A stretch of 64,000 nt of DNA, taken from the NCBI GenBank assembly GCA_965248355.1, contig OZ252098.1, positions 736,001 through 800,000 on the forward strand, in the 5' to 3' direction. Every line of letters begins with the position of its first letter. The stretch's first letter is position 1. The DNA comes from Candidatus Latescibacterota bacterium. GTDB lineage: Bacteria; Latescibacterota; UBA2968; UBA8231. The notes below the pieces were generated by a model. That model saw only the letters and a list, made by a program, of their open reading frames with translations, had not been told where the DNA came from and searched no databases. The position numbers and the translations under genes were made by a program. Positions 17,442-50,544 of this stretch are shown here, piece after piece.

Positions 17442-17516
17442 CACATGCTATAAGATGATTGACAATTCACGCCACCATGGGGTACACTATGATGTAATCA
17501 AATCTACCGCAGGAGG
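17438..17516 (+). promoter_or_regulatory. Promoter of the defence operon with upstream palindromic operator and RBS
   Basis: ATAGCA-CA-TGCTAT (17438-17451), TTGACA (17459-17464), N18, TACACT (17483-17488), AGGAGG (17511-17516). Confidence 0.7.
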
Positions 17517-20500: not shown

Positions 20501-21125
20501 GGCCGCCGCCCGGTCCAGTCTCAGGGAGAAGGCAGGTGCCGGGGACCGCCAGGCCGCCGAAGAGCTGGCCAAGGTCAGGGAACGGCAGCGAAGCCTCAAC
20601 GCCCAGCGCGCCCGCAGGCTCGCCGAGCTACGGGCCGAGGCGGACCTCATCCGGGCCGGGGAGGCCGAGTTCCTCGTGCACGCCCTGGTGGTGCCGGCCC
20701 AGGACGCCGGGGAGGTGGAGCGCTACGACGCCGATGTCGAGGCCATCGCCATGGCCGTGGCCGCCGGCTTCGAGGAAAGCCGGGGTGCCGAGGTGCGGGA
20801 CGTTTCCAAGCCCGAGCTGGCGAGGCGAGCCGGACTGCCTGACTGGCCGGGCTTCGACCTCCTGTCCCGGCGCGAGGGCATGGAACCGAGAGCCATAGAA
20901 GTCAAGGGACGGGCGGACACCGGCGGCGTAGAGTTGAGGGAGAACGAATGGGCCAAGGCCTGCAACCTGAGAGAGAGGTACTGGCTCTACGTCGTTTTCG
21001 ACTGCGCCACGCCCCGCCCCCGACTGGTGCGGGTGCGGGACCCCTTCGCCAAGCTGCTCGTTGGGGAACGAGAGTCCCGTGTCTTCGCCATCACGGCGGG
21101 GGCGGTAATGGCGGCGTCGGAATAG
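17529..21125 (+). CDS. XRE HTH + SNF2-family helicase + C-terminal DUF3883 (PD-(D/E)XK) nuclease
   Basis: LTQAQFAELVGVSFASVNRWENG; LLADDAGAGKT; DEAH; LLTATPH; QRMGRIHRYGQ; GFDLLS...IEVKG...NEW...YWLYVVFDC. Confidence 0.92.
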   Translation: MSSVLSDMLPGDYPRRIKSIRGLRGLTQAQFAELVGVSFASVNRWENGQSRPNNLAWRRVVELENLPADGADKPSADEVPQSPSMDFSADPEAVSAVAEAHRLASGHLFNPAFATETSLIDPLPHQRIAVYQRMLQQSPLRFLLADDAGAGKTIMTGLYVREMLSRRLLRRVLVVPPAGLVGNWEREMRTLFRLAFRIVGGADARAGNPFLGPESDLVIVSVDTLAGERMFGHLKDPQTNPYDLVVFDEAHKLSADRQPDFRVRKTGRYRLAEALACAPSDDKDRWELPWTAQHLLLLTATPHMGKDHPYYYLWRLLLPDALSTFDAFEEFPPDSRQRHFIRRTKEEMVHFDRRPLYPQRNCDTLSYELSQGPDGEQELYDETTEYMRYHYNWAKALNRSAARLAMSVFQRRLASSTYALLRSFERRLEKLERLIDDIRSGRLTEEQLARQQRHLGRLDDFFETRTPDEEAASEDGEQHEEFESRALEGTVAVNLAELEAERVKVAGLLEKAKKLFDAGEESKFEKLREVLAAPHYRDEKLIIFTEHRDTAAFLVRRLEGLGYTGRVALIHGGLAYPERERQVELFRRPADQGGASYLVATDAAGEGINLQFCWLMVNYDIPWNPARLEQRMGRIHRYGQKHDPVVIVNLVSAGTREGRVLKTLLDKLEAIRQQLSSDKVFDVVGRLFEGLSVRDYLEQAVTGEDGGQAAASQMEGHLTEEQVLALAAKERSLYGDGGEVRGRLDELNEEMEQENYRRLLPGYVRRFVERSAPLLDLRLEGDPGGAFTLVPDRPRAADPLFPALEAYPDEARERLTVYKPESREEAIWLHPGEPVFDSLSASVRERLGAEGLRGAVFSDPYASDAYLFHIARVSVQQHPPGDGRAGDGRGEPEGAPQLVESRLVGLRQTSDGAVQECPVEHLLLLRGAGGIAPGGVPLATLARGMAGEAEDFLEEEVNEQIVQTHRQRRLDDLPRRLEFVNRGFDYQAAELAAARSSLREKAGAGDRQAAEELAKVRERQRSLNAQRARRLAELRAEADLIRAGEAEFLVHALVVPAQDAGEVERYDADVEAIAMAVAAGFEESRGAEVRDVSKPELARRAGLPDWPGFDLLSRREGMEPRAIEVKGRADTGGVELRENEWAKACNLRERYWLYVVFDCATPRPRLVRVRDPFAKLLVGERESRVFAITAGAVMAASE

Positions 21126-21165
21126 CGCAGGCCAACCTCCTGGACCACTCGATGGAGAGCCCACC

Positions 21166-22476
21166 ATGCTGAAACGAATCCATATCCAAGGATACAAGTC
21201 TCTCGAGGACGTCGAAGTAAGCCTGTGCCCGCTCGTGGTTCTGTTCGGGCCAAACGCCGCCGGCAAGAGCAATTTGCTCGATGCCCTGCAACTGCTGTCG
21301 AAGCTGGGGACGAGCCGTACCCTGAAGGAAGCTTTCGATCCACCCTATCGCGGCAAGCCCCTCGAATCCTTCACCATCGGGAGCAAGGGAATCAAGGGCC
21401 TGCTCGAGCAGGACAGGCTTTCTTTTTCGATCGAGGCCGACTTGAGCCTCTCGGATGCGGTCGTCGAGGCTGTCAACCGACAAATACGAGAGATGCGCCG
21501 TCCACACGGGGAGGTCGGGTCTGAAGGGGAAGTCAAGGCTCCTACTCGAGTCCGCGAGCGGGAACTCCGCTATCGGATCGAAGTGGAGATGCTGCCCAGA
21601 TCCGGCATTCTGCGGGTAGCGGATGAATACCTGGCCGCCTTGAACAGCAAGGGTGAACCCACGGGAAAACGCAAACCCTTCTTTGAGCGGCAGGGAGAGA
21701 GGATCCATCTTCGGCATGAGGGCCAGGCGCATCCGACCTATTTCGACCGTTCCCTCGACCACAGCATCCTCTCCATGCCGCACTATCCGCCGCACTATCC
21801 GCATCTGGTGGCGGCTCGTCACGAGCTGGAGAGTTGGCTGTTCTTCTACTTCGAGCCCCGCGAACGCATGCGCGCCTCGAACCCGGTCAAGGAGGTTCGC
21901 CATATCGGCATGATGGGCGAAGAATTGGCGGCCTTCCTCAATACCATGAAGGCAACCGATGCCCGGAGGTTCAGGGGAGTCGAGAAGGCTCTGCATACCC
22001 TGATGCCGAACATCGATGGAATCGAGGTCGAGGTAAGTGATCTCGGCGAGGTTGAGATCCGTCTCAAGGAGGGTGGGGTGGCCATTCCCGCCCGTGTGCT
22101 CTCCGAAGGCACTCTGAGGATGCTTGGCCTCCTCGCTCTTACAGGGGTAGACGAAGGTCCGGCCCTGCTGGGGTTCGAGGAGCCGGAGAACGGAGTCCAC
22201 CCGCGGCGAATTGAGTTGATCGCCGAGTTGCTGAGGACCCAGGAGAGCCTGAACCAGATCCAGCATATCATCACCACACACTCCCCGATCCTGCCTGATC
22301 TGCTGGACGACGAGTCGCTGTTCGCCGTTCGCCGGCTGAACGGCCAGACTCACATAGATCCGTTTTCGACCTGGGGCCCGCTGAAGCGAAAGCAGGACAT
22401 CCGCCAAGCCTTCGCCGATGAGGAAGAGCGCCTGCCGGTTTCGGCGCGCATAATGAGAGGCGACTTCGATGCGTGA
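21166..22476 (+). CDS. ABC-type (AAA_21/AAA_15) ATPase no. 1
   Basis: Walker A GPNAAGKS, signature LSEGTLR, Walker B/D-loop FEEPENGVHP, H-loop TTHSP. Confidence 0.9.
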   Translation: MLKRIHIQGYKSLEDVEVSLCPLVVLFGPNAAGKSNLLDALQLLSKLGTSRTLKEAFDPPYRGKPLESFTIGSKGIKGLLEQDRLSFSIEADLSLSDAVVEAVNRQIREMRRPHGEVGSEGEVKAPTRVRERELRYRIEVEMLPRSGILRVADEYLAALNSKGEPTGKRKPFFERQGERIHLRHEGQAHPTYFDRSLDHSILSMPHYPPHYPHLVAARHELESWLFFYFEPRERMRASNPVKEVRHIGMMGEELAAFLNTMKATDARRFRGVEKALHTLMPNIDGIEVEVSDLGEVEIRLKEGGVAIPARVLSEGTLRMLGLLALTGVDEGPALLGFEEPENGVHPRRIELIAELLRTQESLNQIQHIITTHSPILPDLLDDESLFAVRRLNGQTHIDPFSTWGPLKRKQDIRQAFADEEERLPVSARIMRGDFDA

Positions 22477-23050
22477 GGTCGCCCTCTTCGTCGAGGACTA
22501 CGCACATCGGCAGGTCATCGGCGCTTTGGTTGAAAGGATAGCGGGGGACTGCTGTATCGGTGTACGACTCGATTGGAGGAATGCGGTAGGAGGCCACGGC
22601 AAAGTCGTCACGGAGCTTGAAGATTACATGCGAAACCTGTTGGCACAAGGCGGCCCCTTTCCCGATCTGGTAGTCGTTGCTACCGACGCGAACTGCAGGG
22701 GGTTGAACGATCGGCTTCAAGAGATCGGAGCGTGGGATATCCCAGCGCCCGTGATCCTGGCCGTACCCGATCCGCACATCGAACGCTGGCTGCTGCTCGA
22801 TGGAGCAGCCTTCAAGGCAGTCTTCGGCAAGGGGTGTGACGCCCCCGACCAGAAGTGCGACCGGAGGCGGTACAAGGAGCAGCTGATCAAGGCCATCCAT
22901 GCCACCGGAACCGTACCCCGGCTCGGAGGCATGGAATACGCCGAGGACATTGTGCAGGAGATGGATATCGAGCGCGTCGCCCAGCTGGACAGGTCCTTCA
23001 GGCGTTTCGTCACGGCTTTGCGAAACAGGTTCGGAGGCTGGCAATCATGA
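22469..23050 (+). CDS. TOPRIM-like partner protein no. 1 (DUF4276-like)
   Basis: LFVED at the N-terminus, ATDAN, IERWLLLD; overlaps the ATPase 1 stop. Confidence 0.7.
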   Translation: MREVALFVEDYAHRQVIGALVERIAGDCCIGVRLDWRNAVGGHGKVVTELEDYMRNLLAQGGPFPDLVVVATDANCRGLNDRLQEIGAWDIPAPVILAVPDPHIERWLLLDGAAFKAVFGKGCDAPDQKCDRRRYKEQLIKAIHATGTVPRLGGMEYAEDIVQEMDIERVAQLDRSFRRFVTALRNRFGGWQS

Positions 23051-26000
23051 TTTCCGAGGACAAACGCCTCATCGAAGTCGCCTTCCCTCTGAAGCAGGTC
23101 TCCCTCGACTCCGTGCACGAGAAGAACGTGCGCCATGGCCACATCTCCACGCTGCATATCTGGCCCGCGCGCAGGCCGCTGGCGGCCTGCCGGGCGGCCC
23201 TGATCGCCACGCTGCTGCCCGACCCGGGCAATCCCGAGGAGCGCAAGGCGATTCTTGAACGCATGGCCGGGCGGATCATCGGGAGGCCCGAGCGCAAGCG
23301 CGTGAACGGCCGCGTGGTCGAGCGGGTCAAGGAGGAGACGGAGGGCGGTATCCTCCACTGGGGCCGGGAGAGAGAGCCGGATCTGGAATGGTTCCGTGCC
23401 GAGATCCGCAAAGCCTACGGCGGCAGGGCGCCCAAGGTGCTCGACCCCTTTGCGGGCGGCGGCGCGATTCCCCTCGAAGCGATGCGCCTGGGGTGCGAGG
23501 TGACGGCCATGGACATCAACCCGGTGTCCTGGTTCATCCTCAAGTGCACCCTGGAGTACCCCCAGAGGCTGGCCGGCCAGACCCGGCCGCTGCCCGGGTT
23601 CGCGCTGCAGGACCGGGAATTCATGCAGGCCTTCCTGAAGGCCAAGGGCTTCAAGGGCACCCGGCTGCGGAGTCTGCTGGATCGCCTTGGACACGGCGAC
23701 GGCAGCGACGTGCAGCTCGACGCTCTTCCCAGTGGGGACCGAATTGCCGATGCGGATCTCGCCTGGCACGTGCGCGCCTGGGGCCGGTGGGTGCTGGCGA
23801 GGGCGCGCAAGGAGCTGGCCTCCTGCTACCCGACCTATGCCGAGTTCGAGGCGCTGAAGCCGGGCGGGGACTTCGAGCCCCGGCGCATGCGGCTGCTGGA
23901 GGTCGACGACGCGGGCGCGCCCCAGGTCGATCCCCTCAACGCCGAATTCGACGAGGACTATCTGAAGAACCAGCACAACCCGCGCTGGGTCGCCAAGCTG
24001 GCGGTGGCCTATCTCTGGGCGCGGACCGTGGCCTGCAAGCAGTGCCGGGCCGAACTGCCCCTGTTGAAGACCCGCTGGCTGTGCAGGAAGGACCGCAAGC
24101 GGGTGCTGCTGACCATGGAGCCGAAGGCCGACCGGAGCGGCGTGGTCTTCGGCGTGCAGAGCGATGTGCCGCAGAACGGAGGCAACGGGGCGCAACGGCG
24201 GGAGCACGACCGGAGCCTTGGCGCGGGTACCATGTCGCGTACGGGTGCGGCCTGCCCTTGCTGCGCCGCCATCGCGACCATGGAGGACATCCGCTTGGAG
24301 GGTCGGGCGGGACGGTTGGGTGCGGTGATGACGGCCGTGGTCGTGGACGGACAGAATGGGAAGGAATACCGCCTGCCTAGGGACCATGAGCGGGCGGTGG
24401 CGGAGGTGACCGAGGAACGGCTGCAGGCGCTCTATGCGGAGATACCGTTCGGGTTGCCGGAGGAGCCTTTGCCACGCAGAGGAGCTCTGGGGTTCCGTGT
24501 TCCGTTGTATGGCTTCGACACGTGGCGGAAGCTGTTTACGAACCGGCAGCTGCTGGCCCTTGGGGAATTCGTTCGGAGCCTTCGAAGCCTGATGAAGGAA
24601 CTCGACGACTGGCCTGAGGATTGGCGCGAGGCCGTGATCGCGAATCTCGCGCTCGTCAACGACCGGCTAGCTGACTACTCCAGTTCGATCTGTTCCTGGA
24701 TCAATGGCGGCGAGATTCTTGGACACACCTTTGCACGCTTTGCACTTCCGATCATCTGGGACTACGCCGAGGTAAATCCGCTATCCAATTCATCTGGCAA
24801 CTTCATCGGGGCAGTTGAATGGGTTTCACGTTTCGGCGTACATGTTCAGGGAGCCGTTCAATCAGCGGAGGCGGCACGGGTACGGGGCCTCAGTGCAACA
24901 GAGGTGTCGGGCAAGTACGATGTGATCCTCACGGATCCGCCGTACTACGACGCCATCCCCTACTCCGATCTGATGGACTTCTTCCATGTGTGGATACGAA
25001 GGGCCACACAAGGCCTTCGCCACGAGTTGGACGTTGCCTTTCGCGACCCTCTGGGCCCCAAGTGGGACCACGCGAGCGGCGACGGGGAGCTCATAGACGA
25101 CGCTGGCAGATTCGGCGGCGACAAGGAGCGCTCCAAGCAGAACTACGAAGACGGCATGGCTCGCTCGTTCCGCTCGTGTAATGCTGCCTTGCGGCCGGAC
25201 GGGCGGCTCGTGGTCGTGTTTGCGAACAAGAATCCCGACGCTTGGGAGACTCTGGTCGCAGCGCTGATTCGGGCTGGCTTCGTCGTCAACGGCTCCTGGC
25301 CTATCCAGACAGAGAGAACTGCCAGGACTCGATCGATGGCTTCGGCTGCTCTCGCCTCTTCCGTATGGATCGTCTGCAAGAAGCGGTCCGCCTCCCGCCC
25401 CGGCTGGGACAACAAGGTCCTCGACGAAATGCGCGAGAACATCACCCGGCAGCTCCACGACTTCTGGGACGCCGGCATCCGCGGCCCCGACTTCGTGTGG
25501 GCCGCTACCGGACCGGCCCTCGAAGCCTTCAGCAAGTATCCCGTGGTCAAGAAGGCGAATTCCCCGGGCGAGCAGATGTCCGTTTCCGAGTTCCTGCGTC
25601 ACGTGCGCCGCATGGTCGTCGATTTCGTGGTCGGGCGAGTTCTGATCCCGGACGACGCCGCACCGACGGCGGATGGGCAGGAGGCTGAGACCGGCCTCGA
25701 CGACGTCACCACCTACTACCTGCTCCACCGCAATGACTTCGGCATGGGGGAGGCACCGGTCGGCGGCTGCATCCTCTACGCCCTGTCCTGCAACCTCTCC
25801 GACTCCGCCCTGGTCAACCAGCACGACCTCCTGACCCAGGCGGGCAAGCGGGGAGCCGTGGACGAAGACGATGAGGAGGAGGACGCGCCCGAAGAGGCCG
25901 AGGAGACGGGCGGCGGCGCCAAGGTGAAGTTGAAGCCTTGGCAGCGGAGGAAGGGCCGCAACCTCGGCTTGGAGGGGCAGGGGGGACGGCCAGCGCCCCT

Positions 26001-26271
26001 CATCGACCAGGTGCACAAGCTCATGCATCTCTGGCGCGCCGGGGACCAGGTGAAGGTGAACGAATACCTCGACACCCGCGGCCTGCCCCGCAGTGCCCTG
26101 TTCAACCAGATCCTCCAGGCGCTCATCGAGCTGGCCGCCGAAGGCTCGGAGGAGCGCTCGCTCCTGGAGTCGGTGAGCAACCACGCGGCCGGCCGCGGGG
26201 GAGTGCAGGCACGGAGGCAGAGGCAGTTTCAGTTCGAAAGAGCTGAGCCCGGACCGGAGGAAATCCGATGA
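23047..26271 (+). CDS. DUF1156 adenine-specific DNA methyltransferase with Zn ribbon
   Basis: LHIWPARRPLAACRA (DUF1156), VLDPFAGGGAIPLEA (motif I), CKQC/CPCC, ILTDPPYYDAIPYSDL (motif IV). Confidence 0.92.
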   Translation: MISEDKRLIEVAFPLKQVSLDSVHEKNVRHGHISTLHIWPARRPLAACRAALIATLLPDPGNPEERKAILERMAGRIIGRPERKRVNGRVVERVKEETEGGILHWGREREPDLEWFRAEIRKAYGGRAPKVLDPFAGGGAIPLEAMRLGCEVTAMDINPVSWFILKCTLEYPQRLAGQTRPLPGFALQDREFMQAFLKAKGFKGTRLRSLLDRLGHGDGSDVQLDALPSGDRIADADLAWHVRAWGRWVLARARKELASCYPTYAEFEALKPGGDFEPRRMRLLEVDDAGAPQVDPLNAEFDEDYLKNQHNPRWVAKLAVAYLWARTVACKQCRAELPLLKTRWLCRKDRKRVLLTMEPKADRSGVVFGVQSDVPQNGGNGAQRREHDRSLGAGTMSRTGAACPCCAAIATMEDIRLEGRAGRLGAVMTAVVVDGQNGKEYRLPRDHERAVAEVTEERLQALYAEIPFGLPEEPLPRRGALGFRVPLYGFDTWRKLFTNRQLLALGEFVRSLRSLMKELDDWPEDWREAVIANLALVNDRLADYSSSICSWINGGEILGHTFARFALPIIWDYAEVNPLSNSSGNFIGAVEWVSRFGVHVQGAVQSAEAARVRGLSATEVSGKYDVILTDPPYYDAIPYSDLMDFFHVWIRRATQGLRHELDVAFRDPLGPKWDHASGDGELIDDAGRFGGDKERSKQNYEDGMARSFRSCNAALRPDGRLVVVFANKNPDAWETLVAALIRAGFVVNGSWPIQTERTARTRSMASAALASSVWIVCKKRSASRPGWDNKVLDEMRENITRQLHDFWDAGIRGPDFVWAATGPALEAFSKYPVVKKANSPGEQMSVSEFLRHVRRMVVDFVVGRVLIPDDAAPTADGQEAETGLDDVTTYYLLHRNDFGMGEAPVGGCILYALSCNLSDSALVNQHDLLTQAGKRGAVDEDDEEEDAPEEAEETGGGAKVKLKPWQRRKGRNLGLEGQGGRPAPLIDQVHKLMHLWRAGDQVKVNEYLDTRGLPRSALFNQILQALIELAAEGSEERSLLESVSNHAAGRGGVQARRQRQFQFERAEPGPEEIR

Positions 26272-27566
26272 TTACGTCGATTCGACTCGTGAACTTCAAG
26301 AACTTCGCCGACGAGACCCTGCGCGTCGGCCCGTTTACAGTAATCGTGGGCGCGAACGCCAGCGGCAAGAGCAATATCCGCGACGCCTTCCGCTTCCTGC
26401 ACGGCATCGGCCGGGGCTATACGCTGGCGGAGATCATCGGAGGTAAGTTCGGCCCTGGCGGACAGCGGGAATGGGAGCCGATCCGGGGTGCCCCGAACGA
26501 GATCGTAAGGCTTGAGCAAGCTGCCTCTGCGGTGTCCAATTCGGCGAAGGTGCCCTTCCACCGATCCTACCAGACATCTGAGTTCGCCATTCATCTCGAA
26601 TTCAAGTGGGAGGAGGGGGTTAGGATATGCTATTTGATCAGGGTGGGATCTGATCCACAGAGTCCTGAGGGGTTTAAGGTTCTAGAAGAAACGTTGACGA
26701 AGAGACCAGATACTGGGACCGAAGTGCCTCATCTCCCGGAGAAAAGTTGCGATCTGGGCCTATGTCTATTAAAGGGAACAGATTCCGGTGTGGAGATCGC
26801 AAGCCCGTCCATACCGAGCCTGACCCGAGTGCAGGAAAGTGATGTAGGAGAAGAGATGTGGCATGTGGCTGACGAGTTGCATTATACTCTTTCCCAGATG
26901 GGATTCTCGGAACTGTCTCCCGAGCGGATGCGGGAGCCTTCCTTTCCTGGTGCCAACATTCTGGGGCCATCGGGAGAGAATCTTCCGACGGTAATGGAGG
27001 GGATTTGCGCATCACCTGGGAAGAGAAGGGTTCTGGCGGAGTGGCTCGGAGAACTGACTCCAATGGATGTCCAGGATTTCGTTTTCCCTCGTGATCCCAG
27101 CGGGCGGGTCCATCTCATGATCCGCGAGACAAGTGGAAGAACTGTTTCCGCCTACAGTGCTTCGGATGGCACGCTCCGGTTCCTTGCCCTGCTGGCAATG
27201 TTGCTCCGGGACAGTTCCAAGGGCTTGTATTTCTTCGAGGAGATCGACACGGGCATCCACCCAGCGCGTCAATCGCTCTTGCTGGAACTGATCGAGAAGC
27301 AGGCTACAAAAGGGGGAGTTCAGATGATCACCACCACCCATGCGCCGGATCTGCTGACCCTTGTCAACGACACCACCTTCGAGGACATGTCCATCGTTTG
27401 CCGGTTGGAAGACTCGGACGACGCCATCATTCGTCAGGTGGCTGAACTGCCCAACGCGAGGAGATTGCGTAAGTCCGGAAGCGGGCTGGGAGGGCTGCTC
27501 ATCGAAGGCTGGATGGAAACCGCACTGGCTTTCACTGAGAAGAACGACAAGGGGGATGGAGGGTGA
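26268..27566 (+). CDS. ABC-type (AAA_21) ATPase no. 2
   Basis: GANASGKS, ASDGTLRF, FFEEIDTGIHP, TTHAP. Confidence 0.9.
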   Translation: MITSIRLVNFKNFADETLRVGPFTVIVGANASGKSNIRDAFRFLHGIGRGYTLAEIIGGKFGPGGQREWEPIRGAPNEIVRLEQAASAVSNSAKVPFHRSYQTSEFAIHLEFKWEEGVRICYLIRVGSDPQSPEGFKVLEETLTKRPDTGTEVPHLPEKSCDLGLCLLKGTDSGVEIASPSIPSLTRVQESDVGEEMWHVADELHYTLSQMGFSELSPERMREPSFPGANILGPSGENLPTVMEGICASPGKRRVLAEWLGELTPMDVQDFVFPRDPSGRVHLMIRETSGRTVSAYSASDGTLRFLALLAMLLRDSSKGLYFFEEIDTGIHPARQSLLLELIEKQATKGGVQMITTTHAPDLLTLVNDTTFEDMSIVCRLEDSDDAIIRQVAELPNARRLRKSGSGLGGLLIEGWMETALAFTEKNDKGDGG

Positions 27567-28135
27567 ACGTCCTTATCATCCCCGAAGATTTCCGCAATGA
27601 TCAGTACATCCTGAAGCCTCTCTTCTCGCGGTTCTTTCGATCTATTGGGAAGTCTCGTGTGCGTGTCAGAGTCTGCCGTGATCCTCTGCTTGGCGGCTAC
27701 GTGGAAGCGTTAAGGTCAGAGCGTATCGCGGAGGTCGTCAGAAGGCATTGGGGAATGACGGATGTCTTCGTCCTTATCATAGATCGTGACGGGGACAGGA
27801 ATCGGCGCCAGAGTCTCGATCGCCTCGAAGAGCAATTTGGCTGCGAGCAGATCTTCCTGGGGGAGAATGCCTGGGAGGAGATCGAAACCTGGGTCCTCGC
27901 GGGCCTGGACTTGCCGGGTGATTGGAGCTGGGCGGAGGTCCGCTCGGAGATCCACGTGAAGGAAGAGTACTTCGACCGGCTTGTCGTCGAACGCGGCTTG
28001 TCAGACGCGCCCGGCGGTGGCCGTAAGCCTCTGGGAGAAGAGGCATCGCGCCGGATCGATGCGATCCGACAGAAGTGCCCCGAGGACTTCGATGCACTTG
28101 CCAAGCGTCTGGGGACCGCTGCCGGCGTCACATGA
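27563..28135 (+). CDS. TOPRIM-like partner protein no. 2
   Basis: IIPED, IIDRDGD (DxD), EIETWVLA; GTGA overlap with ATPase 2. Confidence 0.7.
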   Translation: MNVLIIPEDFRNDQYILKPLFSRFFRSIGKSRVRVRVCRDPLLGGYVEALRSERIAEVVRRHWGMTDVFVLIIDRDGDRNRRQSLDRLEEQFGCEQIFLGENAWEEIETWVLAGLDLPGDWSWAEVRSEIHVKEEYFDRLVVERGLSDAPGGGRKPLGEEASRRIDAIRQKCPEDFDALAKRLGTAAGVT

Positions 28136-28147
28136 GGAGAGCATCAA

Positions 28148-28458
28148 GTGCTTGATCAGAACACCCTGGATGACATCATCCGGCGCATCGTGGAGGTCGC
28201 GCAGCCGGAGCGCATCGTCCTCTTCGGGTCCGCCACCGGGGCGTCATGACACGGAACAGCGATGTGGATCTTCTCATCATCAAGGAGGGGGGGGACGCGA
28301 ATCTCAGGACCCGGATCTACGAGAAGCTGTACGGCGTTCCCGTCGCGGTCGATGCGATCCTGGTTTCGCCGGCGGACGTAGAGCGCTACAAGGACAGCCA
28401 TGCGTTGGTCATCAAGCCGGCGCTGGAGGAGGGAAGGGTGGTCTATGAGTCCACCTGA
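28148..28458 (+). pseudogene. Minimal nucleotidyltransferase (MNT) antitoxin, frameshifted
   Basis: VLDQNTLDDIIRRIVEVAQPERIVLFGSA, frame break near 28236, then MTRNSDVDLLII...ALEEGRVVYE (the GS...DxD motif is split). Confidence 0.8.
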
Positions 28459-28585
28459 GCGGTTTCCGCGGGATGATCCGCGCTGTCCAGGCCTTGACCG
28501 GCCGGTGTCCGAAGAGGCGCACCAGGATGCGACAGAGATCGCTCAGGCTGTAATCCAGTGGGCGGAGGAGCGGCTGCCAAGATGA
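28445..28585 (+). pseudogene. HEPN toxin remnant with large in-frame internal deletion
   Basis: MSPPERFPRDDPR joined directly to CPGLDRPVSEEAHQDATEIAQAVIQWAEERL, i.e. the N- and C-termini of a HEPN protein. Confidence 0.65.
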
Positions 28586-29865
28586 TCACATTGGTCGAAG
28601 CCTTGAATTATCGATGCCTCCGGTACGTCTCGAGGCCGCTCGGTCCGTTCCACGTCCTCGTTGGGCCGAACGCTTCCGGCAAGACGACCTTTCTCGATGT
28701 CGTCGGCTTTTTTCGGGACCTGATGTCGGAAGGGCTGGATGAGGCGGTCTCGAGCCGGACCAGGAATCCGAAGGACCTCCTCTTCTTGCGTTTGGGCGAC
28801 AGGTTTGAGTTGGCCCTCGAGGCACGTATCCCCGATGAATTGCGTGAGCGGACGGCGAGACCGGAGCTGGACACGGCTCGGTATGAGGTCGCGGTCGGTT
28901 TCGACGAAACGCAGCGCCAGTTCGAGCTGAAGGCCGAGAAGTTCCTGCTCAAGGGAAGGCAGGAGGTGGAACTACCACCGCGCTCCCTGTTTCCCATGTC
29001 TTCCCGCCCACCCGATTCCCTGCTGCGGCCTGAGGGACTTGGGGATAGAATGGTCGTTTCCAATAGAGCACCGCATGAGGGACTGCAGAATGATATGGTG
29101 CTTTACGGGGAGACCGAGGATACCGAGGGGCAGGGTTTCAACCTCTGGTTCAAACTCGGAGCGAGGAACTCGGGGCTCGGCAATCTCCCGGAGGACACGA
29201 ACTCCTTTCCTGTTGGAGTGTGGTTCCGCGAACTACTGGGCACGGGTGTGCAGCAGTTCGTCCTCAACAGCTTGGCCATCAGAAAACCGAGCCCGCCGAT
29301 CCGGGTCACGGGGTTTTCCCCCGACGGATCGAATCTGCCCTGGGTCGTGGACCGTCTGAGGCAGGAGAATGGGGCCAGGTTCCAGGACTGGATGAACCAC
29401 CTGCGAACGGTGCTCCCGGATCTGGAGGAGATCTCGACGGTTGAACGCCCGGAGGACAGGCATTGCTACATGGTCTACGAGTACCATGGCGGGCTGAAAG
29501 TCCCTTCCTGGCTGGTATCCGACGGCACCCTCCGGCTGACAGCGCTGACCCTTCCCGCCTACCTGGAGGATCTCCAAGGGATCTTCCTGGTCGAGGAGCC
29601 CGAGAACGGGATCCATCCAGGCGCCGTAGCCGCCGTGCATGACTCCCTTTCCTCCATCTATGGTGCTCAGGTTCTGCTGGCGACTCATTCTCCGCTGCTA
29701 TTGAACGCCGCTGGATCGGGTGACGTGCTGTGCTTTGCCAAGGCTGACAGGGGAGCGACCGACATCGTGCTGGGTACCGAACATCCCATGCTCCAACAGT
29801 GGCGTGGAGACGTCAATCTCGGCACGCTGCTCGCGTCGGGGATTCTGGGGGGACTGAAGAAATGA
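28582..29865 (+). CDS. ABC-type (AAA_21) ATPase no. 3 (resembles MADS MAD3-type ATPases), no adjacent partner gene
   Basis: MITLVEALNYRCLRY, GPNASGKTT, VSDGTLRL, LVEEPENGIHP, ATHSP. Confidence 0.88.
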   Translation: MITLVEALNYRCLRYVSRPLGPFHVLVGPNASGKTTFLDVVGFFRDLMSEGLDEAVSSRTRNPKDLLFLRLGDRFELALEARIPDELRERTARPELDTARYEVAVGFDETQRQFELKAEKFLLKGRQEVELPPRSLFPMSSRPPDSLLRPEGLGDRMVVSNRAPHEGLQNDMVLYGETEDTEGQGFNLWFKLGARNSGLGNLPEDTNSFPVGVWFRELLGTGVQQFVLNSLAIRKPSPPIRVTGFSPDGSNLPWVVDRLRQENGARFQDWMNHLRTVLPDLEEISTVERPEDRHCYMVYEYHGGLKVPSWLVSDGTLRLTALTLPAYLEDLQGIFLVEEPENGIHPGAVAAVHDSLSSIYGAQVLLATHSPLLLNAAGSGDVLCFAKADRGATDIVLGTEHPMLQQWRGDVNLGTLLASGILGGLKK

Positions 29866-31184
29866 CCAAGATAGAGGGGTTTCGAGTAAGAAACTTTAAG
29901 CTGCTCAAGGATGTGACATTGGGCCGCTTGTGGAACCAGCGGGAGGAGCGGCCTCTCACTCCCATGACGGCGGTAATCGGCAGGAACGGAGTAGGGAAGA
30001 GTGTTCTCTTCGATGCATTCGGATTCCTCGCCGACGCCTTGAGACTCGGTGTCGAAGAGGCTTGCGACGCCCGCGGTCGCGGCGGCTTCGAGAAGCTGCG
30101 GACCCAGGGAGAGACGGGGCCTATCGAGTTCGAGGTGTACTATCGGGAACATGGCAACGCCCGGCCGATAACCTATGAGATCGCCATTGAAGCAGACGAG
30201 TCGGGGCGTCCCTGCGTGTCGCGGGAGCGTCTCAGGCAGAGAAGGAGAAACCAGAGCTATGGTCGACCGTTCTCGTTCCTGTGGCTGAATGACGGCCGGG
30301 GTGTGGCATGGAAGGGAGAGGAGGGGTACGAAGCGAAGGACATCCACATGAGGGGCTTGGTGGACGAAGCAATCGCGGAAGAGGATATCGAGAAGAAGCG
30401 ATCGAAGGTGGAAGAGCTGATAAGGCTGATCAGGGAGGAGGAGCCCAACGAGACCGAACAGATCGAGTTGGAGGACCCCCACAGGCTTGGCATTGCTACG
30501 GTTGGCGCCTTGAAGCAACATCCGAGAATCTCCGCATTCCGCCGCTTTATCGAAGGATGGTACCTGAGTTACTTCACTCCGGCCGCGGCTCGCAGCTTGC
30601 CCTTGGCCGGCCCTCAGAAGCATCTGAATATCCAGGGTGACAATCTCGGCAACGTCGTGCAATTCCTGGAGCGCGAACATCCGCAACGTTTCAAGGCCGT
30701 CCTGAAGGAGATTGCCGGAAGGATTCCGGGCATAAACGAAATCGACACGGAACCAACCAGTGACGGCAGGCTGCTCCTGCGGTTCAACGACAGGAGCTTT
30801 CAGGATCCCTTCTATGCCCAGGAAGTATCCGATGGAACGCTGAAAGTATTCGCCTACCTGCTGCTGCTCGAAGATCCGGATCCGGCCCCGTTTCTCTGCA
30901 TCGAGGAGCCGGAGAACGGCCTCTATCACAAGCTCCTGGAGACCTTGGCCAACGAATTCCGGGAACATGCGAGCGGAAGCAAAGGCTCGCAGGTCTTCGT
31001 TACGACCCACCAGCCGTATTTCGTGGACGCACTCTCCCCGGAGGAGGTCTGGATCCTGGAGAAGGGTGAGGATGGTTTTTCAAAGATTCGACGAGCCAGC
31101 GACGATCCAACTGTGAACAACATGGTCGAGGAAGGATTGCCGTTGGGCGGTCTTTGGTTCAGCGAGTACCTCGACGCGAGGTGA
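29862..31184 (+). CDS. ABC-type (AAA_21) ATPase no. 4
   Basis: GRNGVGKS, VSDGTLKV, CIEEPENGLYH, TTHQP; ATGA overlap with ATPase 3. Confidence 0.9.
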   Translation: MTKIEGFRVRNFKLLKDVTLGRLWNQREERPLTPMTAVIGRNGVGKSVLFDAFGFLADALRLGVEEACDARGRGGFEKLRTQGETGPIEFEVYYREHGNARPITYEIAIEADESGRPCVSRERLRQRRRNQSYGRPFSFLWLNDGRGVAWKGEEGYEAKDIHMRGLVDEAIAEEDIEKKRSKVEELIRLIREEEPNETEQIELEDPHRLGIATVGALKQHPRISAFRRFIEGWYLSYFTPAAARSLPLAGPQKHLNIQGDNLGNVVQFLEREHPQRFKAVLKEIAGRIPGINEIDTEPTSDGRLLLRFNDRSFQDPFYAQEVSDGTLKVFAYLLLLEDPDPAPFLCIEEPENGLYHKLLETLANEFREHASGSKGSQVFVTTHQPYFVDALSPEEVWILEKGEDGFSKIRRASDDPTVNNMVEEGLPLGGLWFSEYLDAR

Positions 31185-31189
31185 TCAGA

Positions 31190-31855
31190 GTGCACTTCGA
31201 GATCCTTGTCGAAGATATTTCGGGCAAGCGAGCGCTGGAGATCCTGGTTCCGAAGATCGTGGACGACCAGCACACCTTCCGGGTTCATGCGTACAGAGGA
31301 GTCGGGCGCATTCCAAGGGGGTTGACGCGTGGAACTGAGGCAAAGTGGCGCTTCCTGCTCGACCAGCTTCCGAGGTTGCTCGGGGGATATGGGAGGACAT
31401 TTGCCGGGTATCCCGCCAACTACCGCGCCGTGGTGATCGTGGTCTGCGACCTGGATGACAGGTGCCGGAGAGCCTTCCGTCGCGAGCTCCTGGAAGTCCT
31501 GGAGGACTGTAGCCCGAGACCGGAGACCCGCTTCTGCATCGCCATAGAAGAGGGGGAGGCCTGGCTGCTGGGCGACCTTCCCGCGATCAAGGCAGCCTAT
31601 CCGCAGGCCAGGGAGGACGTCCTCAAGCGTTACAGGAACGACTCGATTTGCGGAACCTGGGAATGTCTCGCGGACGCCGTCTTCAGGGGCGGATCGAGTG
31701 TGCTGAAAGGGAAGGGGTGGTGGGCAGTGGGCGGGCAAAAGTCAGCATGGGCGGAGAGAATCGTCCCGGAGATGGACGTCGAAAACAACGCGTCGCCCAG
31801 TTTTCGGTACTTCAAGGAGAAGATCATGGAGCTTGCCAAGGAGCGGACGACATGA
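31190..31855 (+). CDS. DUF4276-family TOPRIM-like partner protein no. 3
   Basis: HFEILVEDISG, VCDLDD, IEEGEAWLLGD, NASPSF; alternative GTG start at 31181 overlaps the ATPase 4 stop. Confidence 0.8.
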   Translation: MHFEILVEDISGKRALEILVPKIVDDQHTFRVHAYRGVGRIPRGLTRGTEAKWRFLLDQLPRLLGGYGRTFAGYPANYRAVVIVVCDLDDRCRRAFRRELLEVLEDCSPRPETRFCIAIEEGEAWLLGDLPAIKAAYPQAREDVLKRYRNDSICGTWECLADAVFRGGSSVLKGKGWWAVGGQKSAWAERIVPEMDVENNASPSFRYFKEKIMELAKERTT

Positions 31856-34800
31856 CAACCAAGACATCCCGGAAGCCCTGGCACGAGGTGGTGCAACTGC
31901 GCGACGACCTGAAGACGGGGGAGCTGTCCCTGGCTGTCTTCGCCGCTGACCTCTACGACGTGGTCATGCAGAGGGGGCAGCGGCCGGTGTACGAGCAGCC
32001 CGCCGAGTTCTTCGCCCTCACCTTTCCCACCCTGAACCTTCGGGAGCTGGTCAAGGATGTCTGCCACCGCCTCGCCGGCCGCAGCGACAAGGCGTACCGG
32101 AAGCTCTCCGTCAACTACGGCGGCGGCAAGACCCACACGCTCATCGCCCTCCGGCACCTGGTTCACGACCCGGCGGCCCTGCCCGCCCTGCCGGCGGTGC
32201 AGGAGTTCGAGGCCCACATCGGGTTCAAGCCGCCGAAGGCCCGCGTCGTGGCCCTCTGCTTCGACAAGATCGATCTGGAGAGGGGCGTCGAGACACCGGG
32301 GCCGGATGGCGAGGTCAGGATGCTCAAGCACCCGTGGAGCATCCTCGCCTTCCAGCTGGCGGGATCCGATGGCCTGCGGCTTATCCACGCCAGCGGCGAG
32401 GACGCTGAGCGCGACACCCCGCCGGCGGAGCCGCTGGTGGCTGAGCTGCTATCCAGGCCGCAGAGGGACGGTCTCTCGACGCTCGTGCTCCTCGACGAGG
32501 TACTGATGTATCTGCGGGTCCTGGCCGAGACCTCCGGGGAGTCACGGGGACGCTTGGTCAGCTTTTTCCAATACCTCACCCAGGCCGTGGTCAAGGTGGA
32601 CCGCTGCGCCATGGTGGCCTCGCTCCTCGCCTCCGACCCGAGGAGGGACGACGACCTCGGCACCGCGCTGCGCGACGTATCCGACATCTTCGGCCGCCAG
32701 ATGGAGGAGGACGCCAGCCCGGTGAGCAAGGAGGACGTGGCCGAGGTCCTGCGGCGCCGCTTCTTCACGCCCGAGTCGATTCGCGATCAGAGCGTCTTCC
32801 GCCCGCATGTGGCTTCGGCGGTGGGCAGTATCGCCGCCCTCGACGACCAGACCGGGAAGGAGCGGGCCATCGCCGAGGAGCGGTACCTGAACAGCTATCC
32901 CTTCCACCCGGATCTCACGGAGGTCTTCTACACCCGCTGGACCCAGCTCGACGGCTTCCAGCGCACCCGTGGCATCCTGCGCACCTTCGCCATCGCCTTG
33001 CGCGATGCCGCCGGATGGGACACCAGTCCGCTCGTGGGACCCAACGTCTTCCTGCGCGAGCCGGGAAAGGATGGCCTGGCCGAAGCGGCGTCCGAGCTCG
33101 CTTCCATTGCCAGCGTCGACACGGATACCGGCCGGCCCCAGGAGTGGCGGCCCATTCTGGAAGGAGAGCTGGAAAAGGCGCGTATGATCCAGGACGAGGC
33201 GGCCGGTCTGGCACACCGGGAAACGGAGCAGGCCGTGGTCTCGGTCTTCCTTAGTTCGCAGCCCATCGGCCAGAAGGCGCAGACCCGGGAGCTGATGGTG
33301 CTGCTCGGAGCAGGGCATCCGGACAGGATCGAGTTGGAGAAGGCCCTGCGCCGCTGGACGGAGCAGTCCTGGTTCCTGGACGAGGCGGAGATCGCCACCG
33401 GTGAAACCGGCTCGGAGGGGGAACTGCCGAGGGCGTGGCGGCTGGGCAACCGCCCCAACCTGCGCCAGATGCACCACGAGGCCTGCAGCAACCGGGTGCC
33501 GTCCACACTCGTGGAATCGCAGCTCATCGACGCCATCGACAAGGAGAAGGCCCTCACCTCGGGCGCCTCCGCGGCCGGCGCCAAGGTGCACAACCTGCCG
33601 GAGAGGCCGAGCGATATCGGCGACGACGGCGACTTCCACTACGCCGTTCTCGGGCCGCAGTCGGCCTCCGAGTCCGGGAAGCCGAGCGCTCTGGCCAAGC
33701 GCTTCATCGAGGAGAGGACCTCCCGGGACCATCCCCGGGTCTTCCGCAACGCCGTCGTACTGGCCGTTCCGGCCCGGGACGGTCTCGACGCGCTGCGCAC
33801 GCGTGTCCGGGAGTACCTCGGCTGGGTCGAGGTCCGCGAGCAGCTCAAGGATCAGCCCATCGATCCGCTCCGCGAGCAGATGCTCGCCACCGAGACGGAG
33901 GCCGCGAGGAGGCGCATCCCGGAGGCCGTGCGCCAGGCGTACTCCGTGGTCGTCACCGTCGACGAGAACAACATCGTTCACGCCTTCAAGGTCGTAGTCA
34001 CCGGAGAGCCTCTGTTCACGATCATCAAGGCGGACCAGCGGGCGCGTATCCAGGAGACCGCCGTCAGCTCGGAGGCGATGGTGCCGGGCGGCCCCTACGA
34101 CTTGTGGCGCGAGGGGGAAGATTCCCGCCGCGTCAAGGATCTGGTGGGCGCCTTCGCGCAGTTCCCGAAGCTGCCCAAGATGCTGCGGCCGAAAGAGGTT
34201 CTGGACACGGTCGTTCACGGAGTTCGGCAAGGGACCTGGGTTGCTCGGCTCGTGCGGCCGGATCGCACCGCCCGGACCTTCTGGCGCACGGAGGTGGACG
34301 AGACGGCCCTGCAGGACCCGGCCCTGGAGGTGCTGCTTCCCGAAGCGGCCGAGTTGAGTGGGATCGCCCCGGACCTCCTCGTGCACGAGAAGCTCCCCGG
34401 GCTGTGGCCGTCTGAGGAGATCGGTGTGCAGGACGTGTTCGACTACTTCGCGGGCGGACACACCGTGAGCCTGCCGCGGGAGGGGTATGAGGAGACTCTG
34501 CAAATCCCGAAATGCGACCCGGCCCACGTGGAGGCCGCCATCTCCCAGGCCGTCGAGCAGGGGTTGGTGTGGCTGACGAGCGGACCGGCCTCGATCCTCG
34601 ACGAGCCCGTGCCGGCGGGAGTCTTGAGCGGCGCGGGGAAACTCAGGCCGCCGCCGGAACGGATCGAGGTTGCCGAGTTGGCGGCCGACTCGATCCCCGA
34701 CGCCTGGAAGGACGGCAAGGCCAACGCCCTCGCCCTTGCCACCGCCCTCTCTGCCAAACGGGACGTCAGTCTGCCCTGGACAACGGTGCGGTCGGCCATC

Positions 34801-35166
34801 GGATCGGCCATCCGGGCGCGCTGGATCGCGCTGACCCCGGACAGCGCGGAATGGCCGTGTGACCTGGCCGGCGCCCAACATGTGATCTTCGAGGTCCCAG
34901 CCGGCGAGGCTCGGGACAAGGACGAACCCCTCTACAGGCCTGGAAGCGGGTCCCGAAGCGTGCCCAGCGCCGAAGCGGTCCTGGAAGCCGACCGGATCCA
35001 GGACCTGGCCGAGCAACTCCCGGAGCTGCTGAAGGCGGCCGTCGGCAACGATGTCAGGTTCACGGTCCGCATCGAAGTGGGGGGAGAGAGCGCGCCCAGC
35101 CCGGAGGCGGTGGCCAAGATCAACGATCTGCTTGCCGAGGTGTCCGAGGAGTTGCGGCTGGAGTAG
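31852..35166 (+). CDS. DUF499 AAA+ ATPase
   Basis: KPWHEVVQLRDD, FAADL, NYGGGKTHTL (Walker A), LLDEVLMY (Walker B), SYPFHP, FQRTRGILR. Confidence 0.92.
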   Translation: MTTKTSRKPWHEVVQLRDDLKTGELSLAVFAADLYDVVMQRGQRPVYEQPAEFFALTFPTLNLRELVKDVCHRLAGRSDKAYRKLSVNYGGGKTHTLIALRHLVHDPAALPALPAVQEFEAHIGFKPPKARVVALCFDKIDLERGVETPGPDGEVRMLKHPWSILAFQLAGSDGLRLIHASGEDAERDTPPAEPLVAELLSRPQRDGLSTLVLLDEVLMYLRVLAETSGESRGRLVSFFQYLTQAVVKVDRCAMVASLLASDPRRDDDLGTALRDVSDIFGRQMEEDASPVSKEDVAEVLRRRFFTPESIRDQSVFRPHVASAVGSIAALDDQTGKERAIAEERYLNSYPFHPDLTEVFYTRWTQLDGFQRTRGILRTFAIALRDAAGWDTSPLVGPNVFLREPGKDGLAEAASELASIASVDTDTGRPQEWRPILEGELEKARMIQDEAAGLAHRETEQAVVSVFLSSQPIGQKAQTRELMVLLGAGHPDRIELEKALRRWTEQSWFLDEAEIATGETGSEGELPRAWRLGNRPNLRQMHHEACSNRVPSTLVESQLIDAIDKEKALTSGASAAGAKVHNLPERPSDIGDDGDFHYAVLGPQSASESGKPSALAKRFIEERTSRDHPRVFRNAVVLAVPARDGLDALRTRVREYLGWVEVREQLKDQPIDPLREQMLATETEAARRRIPEAVRQAYSVVVTVDENNIVHAFKVVVTGEPLFTIIKADQRARIQETAVSSEAMVPGGPYDLWREGEDSRRVKDLVGAFAQFPKLPKMLRPKEVLDTVVHGVRQGTWVARLVRPDRTARTFWRTEVDETALQDPALEVLLPEAAELSGIAPDLLVHEKLPGLWPSEEIGVQDVFDYFAGGHTVSLPREGYEETLQIPKCDPAHVEAAISQAVEQGLVWLTSGPASILDEPVPAGVLSGAGKLRPPPERIEVAELAADSIPDAWKDGKANALALATALSAKRDVSLPWTTVRSAIGSAIRARWIALTPDSAEWPCDLAGAQHVIFEVPAGEARDKDEPLYRPGSGSRSVPSAEAVLEADRIQDLAEQLPELLKAAVGNDVRFTVRIEVGGESAPSPEAVAKINDLLAEVSEELRLE

Positions 35167-50072: not shown

Positions 50073-50145
50073 GGAGCGCAGGAATGGGCCGGAGACGGAC
50101 GGCCAGCCGTGATCGAGAGATCAGCTACACTCATGGTTGGCGACC

Positions 50146-50274
50146 ATGAACTGGCCTACTTGGTGGGGGTGGGAGTTGGAGTTGTCATCCCATCTGGAAA
50201 AACGTATGCTCCAGCGTGGTTTTGGCGAGATTGACTTGCGCACCATGTTGGAACAAGCCATCGCGTATCGTCCT
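50146..50274 (+). pseudogene. DUF4258/RelE-like toxin N-terminal remnant, fused in frame to the downstream antitoxin
   Basis: MNWPTWWGWELELSSHLEKRMLQRGFGEIDLRTMLEQA reads directly into the DUF2283 start. Confidence 0.6.
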
Positions 50275-50544
50275 ATGCGAGAGCACTATTTGGAGATCAC
50301 CTATCGCAAGGGGAAGCCCTTGGCCGCATATCTGTACTTGTCGGCTGCTTCGGGTGTGAAGAGTGTACGAACTGAGTCGAAAGATGCAGGTTTGATGGTG
50401 GACTTTGGCCCTGGTGATCAACCCATTGGCTTGGAAATCACGGCACCGGAACAGATGACCGCGGCCCAGATCAACGCCGTTTTGCGCAGCCTTGATCTTT
50501 CTCCATTGAAGGAGGAGGACTTGTCGCCACTCGAGGCCGTGTGA
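50275..50544 (+). CDS. DUF2283 family putative antitoxin
   Basis: MREHYLEITYRKGKPLAAYLYL...GLMVDFGPGDQPIGLEITAP. Confidence 0.75.
   Translation: MREHYLEITYRKGKPLAAYLYLSAASGVKSVRTESKDAGLMVDFGPGDQPIGLEITAPEQMTAAQINAVLRSLDLSPLKEEDLSPLEAV

Follow-up and report, generated by a model that had tools for sequence, protein, structure and literature searches.

An unusually full Hma operon from a Latescibacterota genome holds three HEC-01-type ABC ATPase–DUF4276 pairs and an orphan ATPase

Introduction

Hma is a DUF499-centred type-1 system among the BREX-related systems (PMC11232893, PMC12839542), and its link to BREX has been described (PMC12839542). The hma region is reported to be an insertion hotspot for defence genes, including an 'AAA_21 ATPase-related system' (PMC11232893). 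Defence genes embedded in Hma are also described in the preprint of Payne, Hughes, Fineran & Jackson (10.1101/2024.01.29.577857), in which the commonest embedded family is HEC-01, in which an ABC ATPase is combined with a TOPRIM protein; the second component, HEC-01B, is presented there as structurally TOPRIM-like with an OLD-like metal site. The same authors speculate that embedded ABC-ATPase systems may back up the surrounding system against anti-defence proteins. DUF4276 and RloB have been placed in the Toprim superfamily, with Mad4 of the MADS system named as a DUF4276 member (PMC12065111), and the MANTIS preprint, in its available part, covers type-2 relatives only. In this study, we analysed a stretch of 64,000 nucleotides (hereafter the window; positions 736,001 to 800,000 of contig OZ252098.1, assembly GCA_965248355.1) from the genome of a Candidatus Latescibacterota bacterium, which is a single 5.50-Mb contig. 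A first-pass annotation made from the sequence had noticed four ABC ATPases and three Toprim-like partners here, and had read them as independently acquired guard modules. We found that they lie inside an Hma operon, and we consider it probable that such embedded HEC-01-type ATPase–Toprim pairs act as a sensor–effector second line of defence, drawn from a pool of four old lineages. Since the gene architecture has already been published, and this locus is an unusually full but ordinary example of it, our main result is an explanation of what had been noticed.

Results

The four ATPases and their partners lie in two slots of one Hma operon

The anatomy of the locus can be read directly from the DNA. 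The positions 17529–35166 form one co-oriented gene run on the forward strand, as determined by frame analysis of the GC content at third codon positions (GC3) together with the listing of open reading frames (ORFs), and this run is a single Hma operon. Its core genes hmaA, hmaB, and hmaC follow each other in this order on the same strand, and their products contain an SNF2 helicase with a NOV_C domain of the PD-(D/E)xK type, a DUF1156 domain, and a DUF499 domain, respectively. In HmaA, Pfam detected HTH_3, SNF2-rel_dom, Helicase_C, and NOV_C (1.7e-12). The two internal junctions of the operon are insertion slots. Slot 1, between hmaA and hmaB, contains the pair A1–B1, while slot 2, between hmaB and hmaC, contains the pair A2–B2, a decayed MNT–HEPN toxin–antitoxin pair, the partnerless ATPase A3, and the pair A4–B4 (Table 1). 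All ten intact genes of the operon were matched in PADLOC and/or Pfam, and seven of the nine embedded frames are intact.

The ORF limits were refined by using start codons and homologue alignments, which placed the starts of A3 at 28582, A4 at 29862, HmaB at 23047, and HmaC at 31852; the start of B4 was likewise placed at 31181 or at a GTG codon at 31190 by an alignment of nine homologues. Seven start/stop overlaps of 4 nt are found, at B1/hmaB, hmaB/A2, A2/B2, HEPN remnant/A3, A3/A4, A4/B4, and B4/hmaC, which argues for a single translationally coupled operon. Additionally, B1 overlaps A1 by 8 nt. The window has a GC content of about 70%, and, with the refined coordinates, the GC3 of the cassette genes (0.66–0.76) lies below that of HmaA (0.90), HmaB (0.83), and HmaC (0.88), the chromosomal flanks reaching 0.95–0.98.

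Table 1 Features of the Hma operon, with their occurrence in the 12 Hma regions extracted from related genomes.
Feature	Position	Strand	Description and matches (E-values)	Relative regions
Sigma-70-like promoter matches	17459..17493	+	Upstream of hmaA; consensus match only; possible single operon promoter	
HmaA	17529..21125	+	HTH, SNF2 helicase, C-terminal NOV_C nuclease; PADLOC HmaA 5.8e-160	
A1	21166..22476	+	ABC ATPase, 436 aa; HEC-01A 3.6e-56; AAA_21 3e-29; GC3 0.73	6/12, broken in 1 more
B1	22469..23050	+	193 aa, DUF4276-family; E9, D73-x-N75; DUF4276 7.5e-6 (below Pfam cut-off)	2/12
HmaB	23047..26271	+	DUF1156 N6-adenine methyltransferase; PADLOC HmaB 7.1e-118; DUF1156 9.7e-19	
A2	26268..27566	+	ABC ATPase, 432 aa, PDC-M07A-like; PDC-M07A 6.1e-55; HEC-01A 1.7e-39; AAA_21 5.5e-31	5/12 (as A2–B2)
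B2	27563..28135	+	190 aa, divergent DUF4276-like; E8, D74-x-D76, E108; HEC-01B 3.3e-3	5/12 (as A2–B2)
MNT-type nucleotidyltransferase	28148..28458	+	Frameshifted near 28233–28249; frames 28148–28249 and 28246–28458	3/12
HEPN remnant	28445..28585	+	46 codons; 254 bp present in G035 missing here	
A3	28582..29865	+	ABC ATPase, 427 aa; HEC-01A 4e-38; AAA_21 8.5e-29; intact, without partner gene	1/12, frameshifted there; remnant in 1 more
A4	29862..31184	+	ABC ATPase, 440 aa; HEC-01A PDLC04182 1.3e-190; AAA_21 1.6e-44	4/12
B4	31181..31855	+	HEC-01B PDLC04205 3.3e-91; DUF4276 9.1e-6; E11-D12, D90-x-D92, E126-x-W128	4/12, one with internal gap
HmaC	31852..35166	+	DUF499 AAA+ ATPase; PADLOC HmaC 3.6e-73; DUF499 3.8e-16	

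Four diverged HEC-01A-type ATPases

PF13304 (AAA_21) matches all four ATPases, at E-values from 3e-29 to 1.6e-44, and each of them carries a Walker A motif, an S(D/E)GT signature, an EE(P/I)(E/D)xG Walker B/D-loop, and a TH H-loop. The pairwise global identities among A1–A4 are 20–28%, so the four are not recent duplicates of each other. In the PADLOC collection, the four ATPases match the mad3 model (1.4e-21 to 2.7e-27) and the AriA models (2.3e-30 to 6.1e-41), and the HEC-01 models score best overall. All four match HEC-01A, with PDC-M07A scoring better for A2. Among the adjoining partners, B4 matches HEC-01B clearly and B1 and B2 match it weakly, and A3 has no partner gene at all.

A2 shows a segmental pattern of variation. 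Compared with six relatives, residues 1–60 are 90–100% identical, even where HmaB is only 72–76% identical, while residues 91–211 are 6–53% identical, and most of the C-terminal half is 47–97% identical. The hypervariable insert, approximately residues 61–211 (26448–26900), follows the Walker A helix, and its GC3 is the lowest (0.58, versus 0.83 in the first 60 codons). It matches only 5 protein clusters in a set of 5.8 billion proteins by a word-seeded search, which distant relatives can escape. Payne et al. (10.1101/2024.01.29.577857) describe an 'Insert 1' after the Walker A helix and propose that the inserts set specificity. As a separate observation, the first 190 nt of A2 are 88–90% identical to DNA of the relatives G048 and G060, where the neighbouring genes are 72–74% identical.

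The partners probably belong to the Toprim superfamily

The three partners have in common an N-terminal ED, a central DxD (B2, B4) or DxN (B1), and an ExW motif. By BLASTP, B1 and B4 are only marginally linked (E 0.004), and the remaining pairs gave no significant match. The HEC-01B model scores B1 weakly (2.2e-4), and the mad4 model matches B1 at 1e-3. For the B1 family there are 2115 matches, and a precomputed PF14103 annotation is present in most of the 120 listed. The Pfam scan of B2 gave no match of its own; in the B2 family, PF14103/DUF4276 was found in 11 of 51 diverse members and RloB in 3 of 51, and its ESM Atlas neighbours, taken as a lead only, are mostly DUF4276 clusters plus one OLD-like_TOPRIM cluster. 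The acidic residues are well kept: those of the B2 family (E8, D74-x-D76) show no or almost no variation, and E11 and D90-x-D92 are invariant in the nine sequences of the B4 family. A profile–profile comparison of the B2 and B1 families was not significant (E 0.067 and E 0.2), although the E 0.2 alignment paired the E and DxD/DxN regions. The B2 and B1 profiles found no relatives in a sequence search of the PDB. [quoted passage not shown] Because of the family links and the motifs, we regard the B proteins as probable members of the Toprim superfamily, the fold-search matches being generic Rossmann-like ones.

These results bear out what had been seen at first pass, namely four ABC ATPases with the full motif set that are not recent duplicates, partners with the ED, DxD/DxN, ExW pattern in all of B1, B2, and B4, and, on a per-gene check, cassettes of lower GC3 (0.66–0.76) than the core (0.83–0.90). 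The pairing of ATPases with partners stands for A1–B1, A2–B2, and A4–B4, while A3 turned out to be an orphan.

Four lineages recur across phyla and have preferred slots

To place the ATPases, we searched GTDB genomes with an HmaB alignment, which yielded 80 loci from many phyla, and annotated them with purpose-built hidden Markov models. HmaA, HmaB, and HmaC all lie within the fetched flanks in 56 of the 80 loci, among which 30 have no ABC ATPase of at least 330 aa, 18 have one, and 8 have two; loci with a slot longer than 10 kb were scored as incomplete, which biases the census against full loci. An incomplete locus, L034 from Binatia, contains all four lineages, namely A1 (no adjoining partner detected), A2–B2, A4–B4, and A3–B3. 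We typed 51 ATPase ORFs, comprising 19 of type A2, 8 of A4, 6 of A3, 5 of A1, and 12 others. Where the slots can be distinguished, the genes typed as A1 are located in the interval from hmaA to hmaB and those typed as A2, A3, or A4 after hmaB, with the exception of one A3-type ORF (L083) beyond hmaC. In a tree of 62 ATPases, built without AriA, GajA, PtuA, or Mad3 as named outgroups, for which the PADLOC model scores stand in, four clades were recovered with support of 99–100 in the Shimodaira–Hasegawa-like approximate likelihood ratio test (SH-aLRT; 100 for the A1 clade), each with several phyla and separated by long stems. Across phyla, A1 is more conserved (64–86% identical) than HmaB (65–76%), and the identity of A2 tracks that of HmaB (Spearman 0.75, n=21 loci, which are kin and not independent). 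The recurrence across phyla, the four clades, and the tracking of HmaB by A2 together show that A1–A4 are old, distinct lineages resident with Hma that come and go separately, neither random independent arrivals nor recent duplicates.

Cassettes turn over among close relatives

We next searched the operon DNA against 61 related genomes and extracted 12 Hma inter-gene regions. The Hma core is 72–91% identical among the relatives at the DNA level, while the cassette content varies from genome to genome (Table 1), and the four ATPases do not occur together in any of the 12 related loci. The homology breakpoints with the relatives lie within about 20 nt of start codons. The slots of the relatives also contain other cargo, including a short prokaryotic Argonaute (pAgo) with TIR-APAZ, a CBASS cyclase with a 2TM effector, PDC-M07 pairs, Avs2, a Schlafen-like protein, DUF6338, and an AbiJ-like protein. 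The relatives of B1 and B2 are 67–96% identical over the full length. Additionally, homologues of A1B1, A3B3, and A4B4 also stand alone outside Hma.

The proposed independent acquisition of the modules thus holds in part. The four clades, the presence that varies among close relatives, and a composition more foreign than that of the core all speak for it, while the same lineages recur in many phyla with a fixed slot preference; and long co-inheritance with the core, which had been named in advance as the result that would refute the proposal, was found at least for A2–B2.

Several further observations concern A1 and its slot. In G035, a gene for DUF6338 (L011:4460-5080) replaces B1 after an A1 that is 94% identical to that of the window, which leaves the G035 A1 without a Toprim partner; DUF6338 also occurs in G046 (L022:8771-9370). 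A1 without B1 is also found in G027, G006, and G060. In three relatives, a protein of 1215–1219 aa is encoded between hmaA and A1/hmaB (L016:784-4431, L017:1046-4705, L018:3031-6690), preceded by a small aspartyl-protease-like ORF; it had no Pfam match in the two of three scanned and a marginal PADLOC match to Cas3b (E 8.8e-4) in the one scanned, and is an embedded candidate.

A decayed MNT–HEPN pair precedes the orphan A3

The apparent gap of 446 bp between B2 and A3 (28136–28581) holds two decayed genes that had been missed at first pass. The upstream one encodes an MNT-type nucleotidyltransferase, the C-terminal part of which matches Polbeta at 2e-3, and which is in a single frame in G035, G025, and L029. 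The downstream one is a HEPN remnant without a Pfam match; in G035, the MNT gene is followed by a HEPN ORF of 150 aa that matches PF05168 at 5.3e-25. The two-frame MNT and the truncated HEPN show that the locus contains a decayed MNT–HEPN pair. We also compared contigs from sequencing runs, matched at 90% likeness, so that they may represent related organisms rather than the strain itself. One extra base is present at 28233–28235 in the contigs of runs X5 and X10. Contigs of run X1 are identical to the window over 27500–28704 and lack the extra base; they are possibly the assembly data of the window itself and are therefore not independent support.

Stand-alone homologues of A3, 64–67% identical, are located in three genomes between ligA and a UbiA-family gene; the gene that follows each of them, overlapping it by 4 nt, encodes 210 aa and matches mad4 at 4.9e-6 to 9.8e-5. 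In G027, an A3 homologue that is 84% identical and reads in two frames is followed by a Mad4/HEC-01B-like gene of 228 aa (6.2e-5 and 2.3e-4). The homology of the window to G027 stops at 29849, and that to G035, which lacks A3, starts at 29847, with a short G-rich microhomology common to the window, G027, and G035 at this 29847–29849 joint. Since the two homologies abut at a microhomology, we conclude that the partner of A3 (B3) was lost at a recombination joint, which coincides exactly with the stop of A3 and the start of A4, and was not absent from the beginning. The presence of A3 itself varies: the 1273-bp block 28574–29846 that contains it is absent from G035 and G025, and a joint that skips this block, with the same 10 letters in between as in G035, is present in runs X5, X8, and X10 (three studies); one X5 contig passes from the end of A3 into the start of a B3-like gene. 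In G056, just the first 34 codons of A3 remain, and they lie upstream of A4. Unless it uses B4, A3 is most probably a disabled leftover.

Further ATPase–DUF4276 pairs in the genome

Genome-wide, there are 10 DUF4276 matches, including B1 and B4, and six of the other eight adjoin AAA_21 matches, which suggests that the genome holds about nine ATPase–DUF4276 pairs. DUF4276 lies next to AAA_21 near 320 kb, 1.89 Mb, 3.05 Mb, 3.49 Mb, and 4.31 Mb, the last with an in-frame stop. The genome also contains a second, divergent Hma locus (L111; 2723800-2743700), in which a PDC-M38 pair (ABC ATPase and DUF3226), a Schlafen/AlbA_2 gene, a PDC-M45 pair (DuOB and DUF488), and a HEC-01 pair lie between hmaB' and hmaC'.

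Other features of the window

A 366-bp segment of hmaB (24550–24915) has a GC3 of 0.62, versus 0.83–0.87 in the rest of the gene. The DNA homology of hmaB to most relatives stops at about 24467–24576 and resumes at 24914–24918; G035 has the variant of the window, and G025, G027, and G048 do not. The segment is probably a swappable target-recognition domain of the methylase, and it fits the nested target-recognition domain described in these methylases (PMC12839542).

The promoter scan returned 2 sites versus 1.9 expected by chance, and the terminator scan was likewise not above chance. The window contains no tRNA genes and no flanking direct repeats or att-like sites; the repeats in it are confined to the stretches of the ATPase genes that encode Walker A and Walker B. 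A 19-nt Walker B stretch is identical in A1 (22175–22193) and A4 (30901–30919) and 95% identical in A3 (29591–29609); it is a possible site of inter-cassette recombination, and the ATPases have no other sizeable DNA repeat in common. At 14848–15999, 1.5 kb upstream of hmaA, lies a gene for an ATPase with AAA_14 and DUF4143 (PADLOC PDC-S01, 2.3e-53), separated from hmaA by a lactonase gene on the opposite strand; in the relative G038, a DUF4143 ATPase is embedded between hmaA and hmaB. A second low-GC stretch at 50000–61000 (GC 0.58–0.65), with genes for DUF4838, NHL-repeat, sulfotransferase, WD40, PhyH, and DegT-type aminotransferase proteins, looks like a glycan-modification island and not like a defence island.

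Discussion

A proposed sensor–effector second line within Hma

The module in question consists of an ABC ATPase of about 430 aa translationally coupled to a DUF4276 protein of about 200 aa that probably belongs to the Toprim superfamily. By analogy with PARIS and OLD-family systems, the ATPase would hold its nuclease partner in check and use the variable insert that follows the Walker A helix to survey the cell. Once a phage-derived trigger is bound, together with ATP binding or hydrolysis, the Toprim nuclease would be freed or activated. It would cut nucleic acid and arrest the infected cell, which would amount to a second line of defence expressed together with Hma. The four old lineages would travel with Hma loci and be exchanged, deleted, and degraded by recombination at ORF boundaries. 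The sensor role is suggested by the A2 insert, which is hypervariable although its flanks are near-identical and which shows the lowest GC3, and the nuclease role by the E and DxD, which vary little or not at all in the B2 and B4 families. Modular turnover is suggested by the breakpoints near start codons, the differing relatives, the stand-alone homologues, and the A3-less contigs. A guard function of the pairs is plausible and is already in print as a hypothesis.

Several points weigh against this reading. The second motif of B1 is not the canonical DxD but D-x-N, invariant across 42 sequences. When the models of B1 and B2 were searched against the PDB with Foldseek, nothing matched at E <= 0.001. 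The top rows of VIA-align for both proteins are Argonaute MID domains (Z 9.8–9.9) and CheY-like folds; for B2, the C-terminal regions of OLD proteins in 6nk8_B (Z 6.3, 149 aligned, root-mean-square deviation 3.8) and 6p74 (Z 6.1) rank below Argonaute MID, and for B1, no Toprim or OLD entry is found among the top 50 rows. The longest-aligned row for both B1 (Z 8.9) and B2 (Z 7.1) is 2p62, possibly a DUF3226 structure; a phmmer search with the genome's own DUF3226 protein did not find 2p62. The guard idea is weakened for A2–B2 by the co-inheritance with the core, as seen in the tracking of HmaB by A2, and for A3 by the lack of an effector, no B3 homologue being found elsewhere in the genome (95.7% complete) with the G027 gene as query. 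Decay is frequent in the relatives, with truncated A1, frameshifted A3, and B4 with an internal gap, so some modules may be dead weight. For HEC-01 in general, the available part of the preprint of Payne et al. shows no activity for any member, and the one representative tested there, in E. coli, gave no protection from any of the phages tried.

The same decay suggests an alternative, which we think unlikely, in which the Hma junctions tolerate insertions and form a recombination sink; the inserts would be cargo that hitch-hikes or decays there without a functional link to Hma, several of them, at least A3, being non-functional here; a 'genomic sink' is proposed by Payne et al. This explanation would account for the frameshifted MNT, the truncated HEPN, and the partnerless A3 in this locus, for the A1 truncations, frameshifted A3, and internally deleted B4 of relatives, for the many unrelated systems in the slots of relatives (short pAgo with TIR-APAZ, CBASS, Avs2, PDC-M07, Schlafen-like), and for a cassette GC3 below that of the core. 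However, the seven intact embedded frames keep all catalytic motifs, the relatives of B1 and B2 are conserved over the full length, A1 is more conserved across phyla than HmaB, and each lineage has its slot preference.

Another explanation, which we hold to be improbable, is that the pairs are integrated working parts of Hma, as auxiliary restriction effectors or regulators, and neither autonomous systems nor guards; Mad3/Mad4 appear to have such a role in MADS. In the MADS preprint, deletion of mad3 or mad4 lowered defence, and mad5 could be deleted only along with mad2 or mad3, and Rakesh & Krishnan describe auxiliary or backup nuclease effectors in BREX-related loci. Pairs of the A2 type directly follow hmaB in many phyla and make up 19 of the 51 typed ATPase ORFs, A2 tracks HmaB, and the modules are translationally coupled to core genes. 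Against this, more than half of the complete Hma loci (30/56) have no ABC ATPase, HmaA by itself defended against T4 (PMC11232893), homologues of A1B1, A3B3, and A4B4 persist outside Hma between housekeeping genes, and close relatives hold different pairs. We give little credence to a further idea, that the ATPases are a combinatorial array of sensors in which swapped segments reassign the specificity, with the A2 insert as an exchangeable trigger-recognition cassette, its near-invariant flanks as recombination anchors (compare HmaB 24550–24915), and the intact A3, joined to A4–B4 by a 4-nt overlap, as a second sensor that shares the B4 nuclease, giving two sensors for one effector.

For HEC-01, the locus is a natural experiment, with three diverged pairs and one ATPase that has lost its nuclease. 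The relatives and metagenome variants differ by single cassettes, and A2 varies fast only in its presumed sensor insert. The locus therefore offers ready-made cognate and non-cognate combinations and chimeras.

Comparison with known systems

The likeness to PARIS, MAD3-4, and split-OLD modules that had been put forward at first pass stands at the level of the class, a split ABC ATPase with a Toprim-like partner, as indicated by the HEC-01, mad3/mad4, and AriA models, and does not extend to identity with PARIS or MADS. PARIS (AriA–AriB; PMC11464382) has the same split design, in which an ABC ATPase is paired as sensor with a Toprim nuclease as effector, and the AriA models match our ATPases; however, the HEC-01A or PDC-M07A scores beat those of AriA, and the partners are DUF4276-like and not DUF4435/AriB. 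PARIS itself was rejected, as B1, B2, and B4 have no AriB match at E <= 0.01 and no DUF4435 in Pfam. OLD and the Gabija protein GajA have the ABC ATPase and Toprim chemistry in common with the pairs, but there the two parts are fused in one protein of about 570–600 aa. Here the ATPases of 427–440 aa have nothing beyond the ABC domain, each partner has an ORF of its own, and the locus has no GajB-like helicase, which excludes an OLD/GajA fusion.

Mad3–Mad4 of MADS (Maestri et al., 10.1101/2023.03.30.534895) is likewise a pair of an ABC ATPase and a DUF4276 protein in a methylation-associated operon, and the mad4 model matches B1 and the B3 homologues. The core here is Hma, and in MADS the pair is reported to be needed for defence. 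MADS was rejected, since none of Mad6, Mad7, and Mad8, which the detection model of its authors requires, had a match among the 18 ORFs scanned (10424–40020). The PADLOC candidate PDC-M07 comes closest to A2, whose best match is PDC-M07A. True PDC-M07 pairs are present in slot 1 of G025 and G006, where the partners score 4.1e-44 and 1.5e-34 with PDC-M07B, while B2 has no PDC-M07B match at E <= 0.01, so A2–B2 is not a PDC-M07 pair and can be described as an M07A-like ATPase with a DUF4276-like partner.

HEC-01 (Hma-embedded candidate 01 in PADLOC-DB v2) is the same two-gene module of an ATPase and a small DUF4276 protein, on the same strand and between hma genes. The locus differs from it in that A2 fits PDC-M07A better and B1 and B2 match HEC-01B weakly, and in that three pairs and an orphan are gathered in one locus. 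Slot 2 has five intact embedded genes and two remnants, while the published census of Payne et al. allowed three per junction. Compared with Hma itself, the operon has the same three genes in the same order and on the same strand as described (PMC11232893, PMC12839542); there is no essential difference, and this copy is unusually full.

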